Shown here piece by piece: positions 39,447 to 64,000 of a stretch of 64,000 nt of DNA (its first letter is position 1; each line of letters starts with the position of its first letter). Where the stretch lies: IMG/VR virus record IMGVR_UViG_3300037400_002261, positions 1-64,000 of that record. One strand, written 5' to 3'. The DNA is from a virus (Duplodnaviria > Caudoviricetes). Made by a program: the position numbers and the translations under genes. The notes under the pieces are model-generated. The model was not told where the DNA came from, made no database searches, and worked only from the letters and a program-made list of their open reading frames with translations.

Positions 39447-40581
39447 ATGATTGGAATATATAAAATAACTAATTTAGAGAATGGAAAAATGTATGTTGGT
39501 CAATCTGTTGATATAAATAGAAGATGGAAAAATCATAAAAGGTTATTAAATAATAATAAACATCAAAATAAACATTTGCAGAGTTCTTGGAATATTTATG
39601 GATCTGAAAAATTTGAATTTTCAATTATTGAGTTATGCAATGAAAATGAATTGGATGAGAAAGAAATATATTGGATAGATAAACTAAGAACTTATCATGG
39701 TTTTCCAGATTGTAATGGATATAATGATGCGCTTGGTGGAAAAGGTGCTTCATGTATTCATCCTGTATTACAATTTAATTTATCTGGTGATTTAATTAAA
39801 AAATGGTAGAATGCTCTATATGCTGCTAGAGAACTTAATATTGATGCTAGTATCATATATTTATGTATACACAGAAAAATTAAACGGGCTGGAAAATATA
39901 TTTTTTGTTATATTGAGGATTATAATAATTCAGATAGTCTAAAATGGTATTTTGATGATAGAAAAGTCGCTCCAGTATTACAATGTGATTTATTTGGAAA
40001 TATTATTAATAAATGGGATACTTGTCAAATAGCTAAATCTGAATTGGGGTATAATCCTATTAGATCTAGAGAAAATAATACTTTGGTTTCTCATGGATAT
40101 ATCTATATTTATGAAGATGATTATAATCAATTGACTGATGAATATTTACAATATATTCGTAGTGCATATAATAAAGTAAAGGTAAAAAAAAGTTATTCAA
40201 TTAGATCAGAATGGAGTTATTGTTCAATCATTTGATTCTATGCATGATGCAGCCAGAAATGGCTTTCATATTAGAATGGTGAGAGAATGCTGTCAACATA
40301 AGCGAAATACATTAAAAGGATTTGTGTTTTGTTATGATGATGAAATAGATAATTATACTCCAGAAAAATGTTATGAATTATGTAATTCTAGAAGAAAAAA
40401 TAATCGTGGGAAAAAAATTATTCAAATTGATAAAGATAATACAATTGTAAAAATTTATGATAAATTATCTGATGTTTTAGTTGATGGTTTTAATATGAGT
40501 AATGTAAGTGATTGCTGTAATGGTTTAGTTGATAACTATAAAGGATATAAATGGATTTATGAAAAGGATGGTGCTATATGA
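39447..40581 (+). CDS. GIY-YIG endonuclease with NUMOD-type repeats (1 TAG=Gln; frameshift at A8 40184-40191, possibly a pseudogene)
   Basis: IGIYKITNLENGKMYVGQS..I.RRW..H; repeated PVLQ..L.G..I.KW and KK.IQ.D units. Confidence 0.8.
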
Positions 40582-41624
40582 TAAGATTAAGACCAGCACT
40601 TACAGAAGAAGAAGTGAGAAAAACTGGCGTTGCATAGATAAGGCAGGAATATAATAAATTAGCCAAAGATTATAATCGTATAATTAATGGGGATGTATAT
40701 TTATGTCAAAAATGTAACGAATTTCACAGTGTTGATGCTTTCTATAGTGATAAAAAATATGCAAGTGGTTTATTCCCTATATGTAAAAAATGTTTAATAG
40801 GTATGGCTTGTGACTATGATAAAAAAACAAATCAATATACTGATAATCGTGAAAAGACAATGAAGGTTTTGGAAATGATGGATTTGCCATATATTGATTC
40901 TATGTATCAATCCGCTCTTACTTCTTGTGCGGAAGATGTTCAAGACAAACATCGGAATACTGCATGGTCACATTATATTACTGTTATTAAATCTCTTCCA
41001 AATTGGCGTGGTAAAGGATGGGCAGATTCAGAATTACCATCAGATCAATTTGAGGAAGAAGTAAAAATAAATAATAAAACTCTTAAAAACGCAGTTAAAA
41101 GATTTGGACCAGGTTACACAAATGAAGATTATATGTTTCTTGAAAATGAATATCAAGATTGGATAACAAGATATGAGTGTAATACAAAGGCTCAAGAAGC
41201 TGCATTCGAAAGATTGAGTTTTAAAAAGTGGGAAATTAATAATGCTACCAAGAAAGGTCTTCCAACCAAGGATTTGGATAAGACTTATCAAGAATGGCTA
41301 GGTACTGCTAACATACAACCAAGGCAGACAAGTATGGATGCTACTGCTGATGCTCAAACGTTTGGAACATTAATTCAAAAATATGAAGAAACTAGACCTC
41401 TTCCAGAAATTGATCCCGACTTGGAAGATGTTGATAAGATAGGCTTGCTGATTGATGTGTTTTTCCGTGGACACGCAAGCAAGATGTTAGGATTAAAAAA
41501 CACGTTTTCGCATTTATATGAAAGATTTATGAAAAAATATACAGTAAACAAACCAGAATATGATGAGGATACTGATAGCGAAACTGTTTTTGAAAAAGTA
41601 TTTGGTAGTATGGAGGATGATTAA
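40578..41624 (+). CDS. YonG-like Zn-ribbon protein, probable terminase small subunit (1 TAG=Gln)
   Basis: ATG 40578; TAG 40635; CQKC...CKKC; abuts terL. Confidence 0.7.
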
Positions 41625-43390
41625 TGCCACCAAAAAATAAAAAGACATTAGCAGATGTTCAGAAAGAAAAGTCTGAGCGTTTAATGGACGGGATCGCATA
41701 TTGGGCAGCTTTCTATAGAAAGAATGCTCATAGATTTGTAAATGATTTTTTAAATATTAAGCTGAAAACATTTTAGAAAATTTTAGTGTACATGATGATG
41801 GTTAGCACTAATTTTCTATATATTGCAAGCCGTGGTTCTGGTAAGACTTGGCTTACAGCTTTATATTGTGTAGTCCGTTGTATTTTATATCCAGGCACAA
41901 AGATTTGTGTTGCATCTGGTGTAAAATCATAGGCTGTTGAAGTAATTACGAAAATTGATACAGACTTCTTGAAAAATTATTCATGGGGTTCTTAGAATTT
42001 AAGAAATGAAATAGAATATATATCAACGAGTGTTAATAATGCTCGTGTAGATTTTAAGAATGGTTCTTGGATTACTGTTGTTACTAGTAATGATAATGCT
42101 CGTCATAATCGTGCGAATATTGTTGTTGTAGATGAATTTAGGATGGTTGATTTAAATGTGATCAATACTGTATTGAGAAAATTCTTAACAACATCAAGAA
42201 TGCCTGGATATTTAAGTAAACCAGAGTATGCTCACTTACAAGAGCGTAACTCTGAAATATATATGAGTTCAGCTTTTTATCAAAGTCATTGGAGTTTTGA
42301 TAAGACAAAATCATATTTTGCAAATATGTTGGATGATAAAAGGCGATATTTTTGTTGTAGCCTACCTTATTAGCTTGCTATTAAAGAGGGATTATTATCT
42401 CGTGAACAAGTTGAAGATGAAATGAGTGAGGCAGATTTTGATCCTATTGCATTCTCTATGGAGATGGGTGCTGAATTTTATGGAGATTCTGATGGGGCAT
42501 TTTTCAGATATGATGATATATCTAAATGCAGAAAAATAAAAACTCCATATTATCCTATTGATTTTTATGATAAGCGTGGTATCAATGTACCAGAATTAGC
42601 AATAGGGGAAAGAAGAATATTGTCGGTTGACGTAGCTCTTATGGCATCAAGAAAACATAATAATGACGCTGCTGCTATCACAATTAATGTAGCATTACCG
42701 AATAGTGATACTTCTTATATAAGTAATATTGTATATGTTGAAACATTTGAGGGATTAACAACAGATGAATTAGGACTTACTATAATGAGATATTTTTACC
42801 ATTATAAATGTACTGATTTAGTTCTGGATAGTTCTGGCAATGGTTTAGGTGTTTATGATGTTATTATTAAAGAAACATATGATCCATAGCTTGGTATAAC
42901 GTATGATGCGTTATGCGCATGTAATGATGATAATATGGCAAGTCGTTGTAAAGTTAAAAATGCAAGAAAATGTGTTTGGTGTATTAAAGCATCTGCGGAT
43001 TTTAACTCAAATGCTGCTACTGCTTTGAGGGCTGGTTTTAAAAATGGAAATATTAATCTTCTTGTTTCAGAATTTGATGCCGAGGAAATTATAAAAAAGA
43101 CAAAAGGATATTCTAAGTTATCTGCCAAAGAATAGGCTACATTAAGTTTGCCATATTTATAGACAAGTCTTTTGATTAATGAAATGATAAATTTGGAACA
43201 TGAGATAAATAATAACAAGGTAAAATTAAAAGAGCGGTCAGGAATGAGAAAGGATAGATTCAGTTCTATTGAATATAATTATTGGATTGCACAAGAACTT
43301 GGTTTAAAACTTAGACCTAAACAATCATCTAATGATTTATTAAAATATATATCTATTACTCCACCTTGCCGTTCAAAAACTTATGATTAA
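41624..43390 (+). CDS. terL: Terminase large subunit (YonF-like), 588 aa, 7 TAG=Gln
   Basis: LKTF*KIL (Q motif), [31 protein letters not shown]; TAGs at 41774, 41930, 41993, 42371, 42887, 43133, 43160. Confidence 0.92.
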
Positions 43391-43409
43391 TTAAGAAAGG
43401 AGGCGCTTC

Positions 43410-63179: not shown

Positions 63180-63180
63180 T

Positions 63181-63753
63181 ATGGCATATACGAGTTTTTA
63201 TTAGTTGATACAAGATATTAAACGTGATATTGGTAAAATTGGAAATAAGATAGCAAGGGGTGTTGCAGAAATTGCTCATGAAGATATGTGTGAGGCACAC
63301 TCTTCTATTATTGAAAGTTATTATGGTGGCTATACTCCAGTTAGTAGTTATACTTACTATTATTATTCTCCAAGTGGAAAATTTTATTCTGGTCGTTCTC
63401 ATGGATATAGACGAACTGGAAATTTGAAAAATAGTATTATTCCACAGGGTGTAACAGGTAGTGGTCATTCTTTTACTGCACGAATACAAGTTGGTCCAAT
63501 GTAGATGGATGGATATATTAATTCTACTGGGAGAGTTTTTCCAGCTGAAGGTGTTTTTGATTTGATTTGGGATCAAGGAATTCGTGGTTTACCAGAAGGT
63601 TATAGAGGGCATATAGGTAATGTAAGTATATCTGCTGCGCCAGTTGGAATTGGAATATCTGGAAAACCAGATGAAGCTATGAATGAATTTATGGATAATT
63701 GGTGGGCATAGCGTGGACAACAAATGGCTGATATGATTGCAGGAAGTGTATGA
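63181..63753 (+). CDS. HK97 gp10-like tail completion protein, 3 TAG=Gln
   Basis: YRRTGNLKNSI motif; three code-11 fragments join in frame. Confidence 0.65.
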
Positions 63754-63814
63754 TGGGAAGTGCAATATTGTACTTCCTATTTTTTACTTTTTATTATAAA
63801 AAGGGAGGTATAAT

Positions 63815-64000
63815 ATGGCCGATATTAAAGAATATATTATAAAAATAACGGCGAATGTTGATGATGCCAAATAGAAGTTAGATAGTTTGGCAAATTCTAT
63901 GTCAAAAGTAAATCTTAATAATGGACTTGATTTAGATTTAAAAAAGTCTACAAGCGAAATTACTGGTTCTATAGGAAAAGTTGCTGAAGAAGTAGGAAAA
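63815..64000 (+). CDS. Probable tape measure protein, N-terminus (partial; 1 TAG=Gln)
   Basis: GGGAGG RBS; IIKITANVDDAK* start; gene order. Confidence 0.5.

Follow-up and report, generated by a model that had tools for sequence, protein, structure and literature searches.

The virus record IMGVR_UViG_3300037400_002261 (Duplodnaviria; Caudoviricetes) is a linear single contig of 107,285 bp with 33% GC, the first 64,000 nucleotides of which are here called the window. Its genes fall into three blocks: a minus-strand block at 1-25.3 kb, a plus-strand block at 25.9-39.0 kb, and a plus-strand late block, which follows a cluster of tRNA genes at 39.1-39.3 kb and extends to the contig end (Table 1). 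The first tRNA of this cluster carries the anticodon CUA, and the genes behind it contain in-frame TAG codons. A preliminary description of the window had proposed that TAG is recoded to glutamine (Gln) only in the late region, starting at the first gene after the suppressor cluster. Based on the distribution of TAG, on alignments with relatives and on the tRNA itself, we consider it very likely that TAG stands for Gln in the late block, i.e., that a stage-specific switch of the code-15 type would take place in an SPbeta-like siphophage of the bovine gut.

In-frame TAG codons and the boundary of their use

When open reading frames (ORFs) were bounded by TAA and TGA alone, the window contained 77 in-frame TAGs in 28 of the 33 plus-strand genes from 39.4 kb on. 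The first lies at 39807; 76 fall into 27 complete genes between 39420 and 63753, and the 77th (63872) belongs to a gene that starts at 63815. This recount is identical with the earlier figures (77 TAGs in 28 genes from 39807, none upstream). The 68 upstream genes, 53 on the minus strand and 15 on the plus strand, hold no in-frame TAG, and none of them lengthens or merges under TAG read-through. On the entire contig, 299 in-frame TAGs are distributed over 34 of the 43 late genes, and all 43 end in TAA (31) or TGA (12), as had been claimed for five of the late genes. Read-through likewise reproduces the lengths given before for the large terminase (TerL, 588 aa), the portal protein (530 aa), two further proteins (596 aa and 367 aa) and the recombinase (334 aa), and the quoted motifs LKTF*K, KS*A, PIR*Y versus PVIQY, QPKS* and EDV*AANR, with * for TAG, were all recovered. 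The completeness of the contig is estimated at approximately 54% (CheckV, IMG/VR), and TAG use in late genes only applies just to the assembled part of the genome.

The strand-specific coding density of the late block rises from 53% under translation table 11 to 94% with TAG as a sense codon; for the region 39.4-64 kb the values are 53% and 87% (about 93% using a manually fixed gene list). Upstream, the density is unchanged, with 74.7% and 74.8% in the early block and 93.1% in both cases in the middle block, and controls with TGA or TAA as sense gave no gain in any block. The check by region that had been suggested thus locates the gain just in the late block. At the late-block rate, where TAG makes up 30% of Gln-type codons, the probability of zero TAG among the approximately 260 upstream CAA/CAG codons is near 1e-40. 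CAG amounts to 0.65% of codons in late genes, compared to 1.44% in early genes, and TAG to 1.38% in late genes, which fits CAG-to-TAG transitions. The TAG share varies by gene from 0 to 100% of Gln-type codons. Along the genes, TAGs are evenly spread (quintile counts 66, 70, 68, 52, and 43) and sit within conserved catalytic cores, including the TerL ATPase. Without suppression, translation of the late genes would end after 38 codons in the median, at about 14% of their length.

Contigs from other bovine-gut studies match the late block with 0 differences at 39278-39879, including the TAG at 39807 (run X2), and at 42169-42468, including the TAG at 42371 (run X19, an RNA library). Since independent assemblies reproduce TAG-bearing stretches exactly, sequencing error is not the cause of the TAGs. 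The RNA-library contigs are too sparse to give timing, strand or transcript ends, and most of their listed differences represent strain variation. A spike in depth at 39168-39834 stems from tRNA genes of other organisms.

In the early block, two genes end in genuine TAG stops (Table 1), and at 2556-2558 the succession of TAG, ribosome-binding site and next ATG is a textbook case of stop and restart. Early translation therefore follows the standard code. The 68 genes in 1-39021 stop with TAA (34), TGA (32) and TAG (2). TAG stops are rarer than in relatives (2 of 68 versus 49 of 223 ORFs, about 22%; Fisher p = 9e-5), while TGA stops are more common (32 of 68 versus 41 of 223, about 18%; p = 5e-6). 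The purge of TAG stops and the enrichment of TGA stops extend to the part in which TAG does not serve as a sense codon, and thus the whole genome is adapted to a cell in which UAG becomes an unreliable stop.

For gene annotation, the consequences are considerable: under table 11, the contig yields 86 fragments in place of 41 genes, and the tape measure of 8310 aa is missed. An antisense frame at 48653-50191 on the minus strand, opposite the scaffold- and capsid-position genes, is free of stops over 512 aa (557 aa with TAG as sense) and misleads gene calling by the longest ORF. Since the opposing plus-strand genes have homolog and PHROG support, this frame is probably a by-product of codon bias.

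Table 1. Features of the window and of the adjoining contig; positions refer to the contig, position 1 being the first letter of the window.
Feature	Position	Strand	Remarks
Minus-strand early block	1..25300	-	53 small genes, standard code
TAG stop of an early gene	2556-2558	-	then AAAGGAAA, a spacer and the start codon (ATG) of the following gene
TAG stop of a second early gene	21737-21739	-	genuine TAG stop
TAG-free plus-strand block	25914..39021	+	15 genes; neither in-frame TAG nor TAG stop
Helicase-like, ParB-like, HNH and PhoH-like genes	within 25914..39021	+	members of the TAG-free block
YonO-like RNA polymerase	30405-33122	+	BLASTP to YonO E = 1e-6, 20% identity (weak); also matches a phage gene annotated as RNA-dependent RNA polymerase
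HU/YonN-like gene	33382-33654	+	TAG-free block
tRNA-Pro	33757-33830	+	TAG-free block
ClpP-like protease	35690-36307	+	PHROG 'head maturation protease' families; TAG-free block, apart from the head genes
YonJ-like exonuclease	37146-38348	+	E = 3e-24; no TAG
Terminator-like hairpin with T-run	39067..39097	+	10-bp stem, 6 GC pairs; directly 5' of the suppressor tRNA
Amber-suppressor tRNA, anticodon CUA	39099..39171	+	ARAGORN; Rfam tRNA 57.5 bits; no encoded CCA
tRNA-Thr(UGU)	39180-39252	+	member of the three-tRNA cluster
tRNA-Asn(GUU)	39256-39333	+	completes the three-tRNA cluster
Long hairpin GGAACGGAA...CTTCCGTTC followed by TTTTTT	39337..39412	+	read from the sequence; between tRNA cluster and first recoded gene; kept in L009
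GIY-YIG-type homing endonuclease, first recoded gene	39447..40235	+	1 TAG (39807); PHROG homing-endonuclease matches; homolog alignments cross the TAG
YonG-like protein	40578..41624	+	1 TAG; BLASTP to SPbeta YonG E = 3e-50; phrog_3314
Large terminase TerL (YonF-like), 588 aa	41624..43390	+	7 TAG, codons 51, 103, 124, 250, 422, 504, 513
Portal protein, 530 aa	43410..45002	+	3 TAG; phrog_2739 portal match 57-525
GIY-YIG/NUMOD homing endonuclease paralog	45573..46748	+	2 TAG; Pfam NUMOD1 and GIY-YIG
596-aa protein, SPbeta yonD position	46762..48552	+	4 TAG; phrog_3313 match 37-593, family of unknown function
367-aa protein, SPbeta yonB (virion structural) position	49178..50281	+	1 TAG (49877); phrog_4088 match 31-365 spanning the TAG, family of unknown function
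399-aa protein	51703..52902	+	11 TAG, the highest load in the window
YomM-like tyrosine recombinase, 334 aa	56660..57664	+	4 TAG; inside the late block; synteny with SPbeta yomM
Giant tape-measure ORF, 24.9 kb, 8310 aa	63815-88747 (window part 63815..64000)	+	164 TAG

Glutamine as the very likely meaning of TAG and the CUA tRNA

Late proteins with X at each TAG were aligned by tblastn to 39 standard-code relatives, comprising 8 GenBank phages, 8 IMG/VR contigs and 23 loci in bacterial assemblies; the alignment covered 70 TAG columns with 497 cells. Gln makes up 37% of the residues opposite TAG, compared to 3.1% of all aligned residues and 26% opposite the phage's own CAA/CAG codons. In terms of a substitution-profile log-likelihood, Gln is ahead of the next residue, glutamate (Glu), and also of lysine (Lys) and histidine, by approximately 260 nats. 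At TerL codons 51 and 103, Gln is found in 37 of 37 and in 37 of 38 homologs, respectively. The IMG/VR relatives L010-L013, which lack in-frame stops and have a TerL of 78-82% identity, show CAA/CAG at six of the seven TAG codons of the TerL gene. Between the studied phage and the recoded contig L009 (92% identical, 10 TAGs in its TerL), TAG alternates with CAA/CAG. Within the protein encoded at 45573-46748, PIR*Y (residue 195) has its counterpart in PVIQY (residue 125). The assignment of TAG to Gln made in the preliminary description is hence borne out by the homolog columns, by CAA/CAG in close relatives and by a CUA tRNA of the Gln type.

This tRNA shows a canonical cloverleaf with the anticodon loop CUCUAAC, a 5-bp anticodon stem, a variable loop of 4 nt, a 9-nt D-loop with GG, and the canonical T-loop TTCGAAT. 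The identity elements recognized by the glutaminyl-tRNA synthetase (GlnRS) of E. coli are G73, G2:C71, G3:C70, a weak or open 1:72 pair, U35, and G10. In the suppressor tRNA, A1 and C72 are unpaired, G2:C71 and G3:C70 are paired, and G10, U35 and the discriminator G73 are present, such that it carries these elements with exception of position 36, where A36 necessarily replaces G36. GlnRS is encoded in all three genomes that host related prophages (708-730 bits, cut-off 426), and direct charging with Gln by the host GlnRS would be plausible.

Among the matches listed in a search of 50,697 phage records, 18 neighbours of the suppressor are annotated as tRNA-Gln and one as tRNA-Arg. Over positions 8-65, it is 83-86% identical to tRNAs of the crAss-like phages cr53_1, cr60_1, cr7_1, and cr124_1, of which at least that of cr53_1 is also a CUA suppressor, and a CUA tRNA on an unannotated fecal contig is 90% identical. 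It is therefore of the same phage tRNA-Gln body type as in the experimentally supported code-15 crAss-like phages.

An identity deduced from the tRNAs of candidate hosts was rejected. In three Lachnospiraceae-type genomes, BLAST gave just T-arm and acceptor matches to tRNA-Pro, and global identity, which cannot assign tRNA identity, placed tRNA-Gly (71%) above tRNA-Gln (60%). ARAGORN labels the suppressor as a pyrrolysine tRNA (tRNA-Pyl), a label set by the anticodon alone. tRNA-Pyl has a very small D-loop without G18G19, a 3-nt variable loop and an elongated anticodon stem, and occurs together with pylS/pylBCD genes. The GG of the D-loop, the 5-bp anticodon stem and the 4-nt variable loop contradict this label; no search for pyl genes was made. 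A permissive Rfam search of 38800-39600 revealed the three tRNAs and neither theta/HDV-like ribozymes nor other RNA families. The end of the cluster is shared with the recoded relative, since L009:150-296 aligns to 39258-39406.

SPbeta-like architecture and the distribution of recoding among relatives

TerL is 49% identical to YonF of SPbeta, and the gene order of SPbeta is kept: YonO-like, HU/YonN-like, YonJ-like, YonG-like, YonF and YonE (portal) genes are followed further downstream by a YomM-like tyrosine recombinase and a giant tape measure. The same order is found in SPbeta-like phages of Staphylococcus, Mammaliicoccus, Lysinibacillus, and Clostridioides. The kinship to SPbeta stated in the preliminary description is thus well founded in TerL and gene order. 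Most late proteins have no tblastn match to SPBc2 at E <= 1e-5, and the phage falls outside the genus Spbetavirus, being too divergent with a TerL of just 49% identity and few matches to SPBc2. As judged from these comparisons, the term SPbeta-like would hold for the architecture and not for the genus. An assembly chimera as the cause of the sharp boundary was rejected, as the gene order across the boundary agrees with that of SPbeta and of the relatives L009 and L013. A serine recombinase, corresponding to the SprA-type integrase of SPbeta, was not found on the contig, which is about 54% complete; the YomM-like tyrosine recombinase is the sole recombinase present there.

The first recoded gene likely starts with the ATG at 39447. 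PHROG profiles run end to end across TAG sites in the portal protein and in the proteins at the yonB and yonD positions. For the 596-aa protein, the former label of a protease finds no Pfam or PHROG support, its position being that of yonD. The former label of a capsid for the 367-aa protein is not backed by Pfam or PHROG either; it is retained in weaker form, since the yonB position makes a major capsid protein probable by synteny. In the tape-measure ORF, Pfam places a PhageMin_Tail (tape-measure) domain at about residues 4240-4450 and gives no match to the first 4000 residues. Provided that the ORF encodes a single protein, its length far exceeds that of the tape measures in SPbeta-like relatives (approximately 2100-2800 aa). 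The late block includes three paralogous GIY-YIG/NUMOD homing-endonuclease genes (39447-40235, 45573-46748, and 100168-100986 of the contig). Since each carries sense TAGs, these mobile genes have adapted to the recoded context. The TAGs in the YomM-like recombinase contrast with the avoidance of recoded stops reported for integrases of recoded prophages. In the early block, a PcfJ-like gene (505 aa) and a PC4/PcfK-like gene (392 aa) adjoin at 15162-17854 on the minus strand; both families are more familiar from conjugative plasmids.

The contig is found again in at least 14 studies of bovine-gut metagenomes, and its habitat is the bovine gut. Its nearest relatives within bacterial assemblies occur in Lachnospiraceae-type genomes (Robinsoniella, Anaerocolumna, Konateibacter, Eubacterium plexicaudatum). 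The host is probably a member of the Lachnospiraceae or another Clostridia bacterium that uses the standard code.

Approximately 100 relatives were sampled, all of which use the standard code with the single exception of L009. An alignment-based scan found 23 relatives in bacterial assemblies, none of them with in-frame TAGs, 66 IMG/VR loci sharing the YonJ-like gene showed no suppressor tRNA and no convincing gain in density, and the 8 GenBank phages showed neither suppressor tRNA nor density gain. A scan of representative prokaryote genomes with TerL as the single query protein gave no match. L009 shares 10 TAG positions with the studied phage. In the standard-code relative L013, a tRNA-Pro occupies the slot of the suppressor cluster, and the gene upstream of it ends in a TAG stop; thus, the slot is older than the suppressor. 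Overall, recoding in this clade looks recent and narrow as far as the sampled sequences reach, which agrees with the short distances between coded and recoded phages described previously (10.1101/2021.08.26.457843).

The sister contig has tRNA features of its own without counterpart in the studied genome. Behind the portal gene, L009:5509-5595 encodes a different CUA tRNA of 87 nt with a long variable arm, the non-canonical T-loop TGCAAGT and the same AGGGG...CCCCC-G acceptor pattern; a database search with it gave no informative neighbours. At L009:1-70, a truncated tRNA-like 3' half has CTA centred in a possible anticodon loop. A further relative, L019 (JAZQNA010000062.1, a contig of 157.9 kb), encodes a TerL of 68% identity and belongs to a metagenome-assembled genome (MAG) labelled Candidatus Absconditabacterales, whose genetic code is code 25. 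With a GC content of 29% and a complete lack of in-frame stops at this locus, L019 is probably a mis-binned SPbeta-like phage contig.

A probable late code switch: proposed mechanism, alternatives and significance

According to the mechanism we propose, the minus-strand early block and the plus-strand block for replication and transcription (25.9-39.0 kb), which lack sense TAGs, would be translatable by the unmodified host. The CUA tRNA, heading the packaging and virion module, would be charged with Gln once transcribed, most likely by the host GlnRS, and would outcompete release factor 1 (RF1) at UAG. The 34 TAG-bearing late genes, which cover terminase, portal, head, tail, tape measure, and tail fibres, would then be made full length. 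The switch would act as a translational gate on late proteins, added to late transcription by the YonO-like RNA polymerase, with the timing of tRNA expression relative to the late genes as a further presumed component.

Several points weigh against this picture or limit it. The suppressor is only about 60% identical to the tRNA-Gln(UUG) of Lachnospiraceae and has A1/C72 unpaired, whereas the host tRNA has U1-A72. Some TAG columns are rich in Glu or Lys rather than Gln (position 234 of the capsid-position protein, TerL codon 422), as is expected for variable surface positions, though such columns are no proof of Gln. The 164-TAG gene needs, for useful yields, a suppression of about 98-99% per codon, which the tRNA alone does not explain: a read-through of 95% would leave 0.02% full-length product and one of 99% would leave 19%, with less than 0.03% over the range of 90-95%. 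The 164 TAGs therefore require near-complete exclusion of RF1. The contig encodes neither an RF-1-domain or other release-factor gene nor a GlnRS/GluRS-type gene, which is uninformative at a completeness of about 54%. Finally, the late promoter may lie approximately 5 kb upstream of the TAG boundary by analogy to SPbeta, where the YonO-dependent late operon begins upstream of yonK/yonJ (PMC5467207). The YonJ-like gene is TAG-free together with its surroundings of about 5 kb, and it may already be late-transcribed. Thus, the boundary tracks the position of the tRNA and not a demonstrated early/late promoter. Of the earlier claim that recoding is confined to the late region from the tRNA onward, the boundary at the tRNA stands, while "late" refers to gene content, given the possible upstream promoter and the incomplete contig.

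Among the alternatives, TAG could have been reassigned to a residue other than Gln, e.g., Glu, Lys, pyrrolysine, or a class-II identity such as serine or leucine, by a tRNA with atypical identity elements. The Pyl label, the closer global match to host tRNA-Gly than to host tRNA-Gln, the columns dominated by Glu or Lys, and the long-armed CUA tRNA of L009 are in line with such a reassignment. We regard it as very unlikely, as the label derives from the anticodon alone and the tRNA has an ordinary D-loop GG, T-loop and 7-nt anticodon loop, the annotated tRNAs closest to it are tRNA-Gln, known code-15 crAss-like suppressors among them, Gln leads every alternative by at least 260 nats at TAG columns, and TAG occupies invariant-Gln columns of TerL, with CAA/CAG at the same codons in close relatives. 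Equally improbable is a leaky, programmed read-through by which most products would be truncated and a regulated minor share would be full length. The efficiency of classical amber suppressors lies far below 100%, no mechanism of RF1 removal is visible on the contig, and TAG density differs widely between genes, all of which would suit leakiness; yet the TAGs lie in conserved catalytic cores and evenly along the genes, a functional tape measure with 164 TAGs is compatible just with near-complete decoding, and in crAss-like phages code 15 is backed by proteomics (PMC9523058).

A host that itself reads TAG as Gln, mirrored by the phage, with the TAG-free early block due to composition or recent acquisition, is extremely unlikely. 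That the host is no more than a probable member of the Clostridia and that L019 was binned with a lineage of non-standard code leaves this explanation some room; L019, however, lacks in-frame stops and is probably mis-binned, two early genes end at TAG, one of them directly before a ribosome-binding site and the next ATG, and a phage-borne tRNA would be superfluous in such a host. Moreover, the approximately 100 relatives, including prophages in Lachnospiraceae, Robinsoniella, and Konateibacter, stop about 22% of their genes with TAG and have none in-frame. Least credible of all, to the point of being negligible, is the notion that the TAGs are damage or artefact, i.e., a decaying, pseudogenised phage or errors of assembly or sequencing. 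A metagenomic fragment with a CheckV completeness of 54% might invite it, but all 299 of 299 interruptions are TAG (0 TAA, 0 TGA), frames are intact over up to 24.9 kb, the TAGs fall on Gln columns and are matched by a suppressor tRNA, and the sequence recurs across the bovine-gut studies, with independent contigs matching TAG stretches exactly and TAG positions shared with L009.

Concerning the origin of the Gln reading, one scenario, possible but rather doubtful at present, is that recoding is very recent in one bovine-gut sublineage. A crAss-type tRNA-Gln(CUA) would have been captured into the conserved slot that heads the late operon of the YonO-like polymerase, CAG would have drifted to TAG downstream only, TAG stops would have been purged genome-wide, and an unrecognised early function would remove or block host RF1. 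Such an early anti-RF1 function is predicted by this scenario because the tape measure with its 164 TAGs needs about 98-99% suppression per codon or better.

The tRNA itself invites comparison with E. coli supE, a host-encoded tRNA-Gln with anticodon CUA, which inserts Gln at UAG in competition with RF1, weakly and at rare nonsense mutations. Both share the Gln-type CUA body, while the studied tRNA must decode approximately 300 sense TAGs nearly completely. Among phages, TAG-to-Gln recoding biased to late, structural and lysis genes is known, as are suppressor tRNAs encoded by phages, hosts with the standard code and close relatives that use it as well (10.1101/2021.08.26.457843; PMC9523058; PMC10607447; PMC10879173), and the statement that late-biased code 15 is established in gut phages agrees with these studies. 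The crAss-like and other code-15 gut phages described by Borges et al. (10.1101/2021.08.26.457843) share with the studied phage TAG as Gln in structural and late genes, standard-code early genes, a CUA tRNA, low GC, and close standard-code relatives. In the studied phage, packaging, head and tail genes are recoded, and no lysis genes were identified on its contig. The hosts of the crAss-like and other code-15 gut phages use the standard code; for the studied phage, all sampled relatives but L009 do so, and the same is presumed of its own host. For crAss-like phages, code 15 has been validated by proteomics (PMC9523058). In contrast, the studied phage comes from an unrelated virion lineage, an SPbeta-like siphophage with a YonO-type polymerase from the bovine gut and probably a Bacillota host. 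Its tRNA differs from the crAss-like CUA tRNAs in the acceptor stem and encodes no CCA, and no release factor or synthetase was seen on the incomplete contig.

Closer in genome type is phAss-1 of the proposed Phassvirus (PMC10607447), likewise a large siphovirus-type genome of a Bacillota-associated clade with standard-code relatives, TAG in TerL, portal, tape measure and tail-fibre genes, and tRNA-CUA without dedicated synthetase. Its lineage differs, grouping with Enterococcus EF1 and Enterocloster PMBT phages and giving a weak partial match to the studied TerL. It has 36 tRNAs, 2-3 of them suppressors, and stems from the human gut, compared to four tRNAs with one suppressor in the bovine-gut phage. 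SPbeta (SPBc2) and SPbeta-like phages have the same gene order and, for SPbeta, the related TerL, but use the standard code and have no suppressor tRNA; in the fetched region of SPbeta, TAG is an ordinary stop in 10 of 54 ORFs. No paper was found that links SPbeta-type phages to code 15, and this lineage appears to be new for the code.

The phage is thus a clean further case of the documented code switch of gut phages and involves no new mechanism. That phages switch their code by stage has been established by bioinformatics and, in crAss-like phages, also by proteomics; the present case bears on the execution of the switch and on its evolution. The lineage is partly understood through SPbeta, with its YonO polymerase, single late operon and tractable Bacillota relatives. 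Because standard-code relatives of about 80% protein identity and a recoded sister are available, the steps of codon reassignment become directly comparable: the gain of the tRNA in an existing slot, the loss of TAG stops (2 of 68 versus about 22%), and the change of CAG to TAG only downstream of the tRNA.

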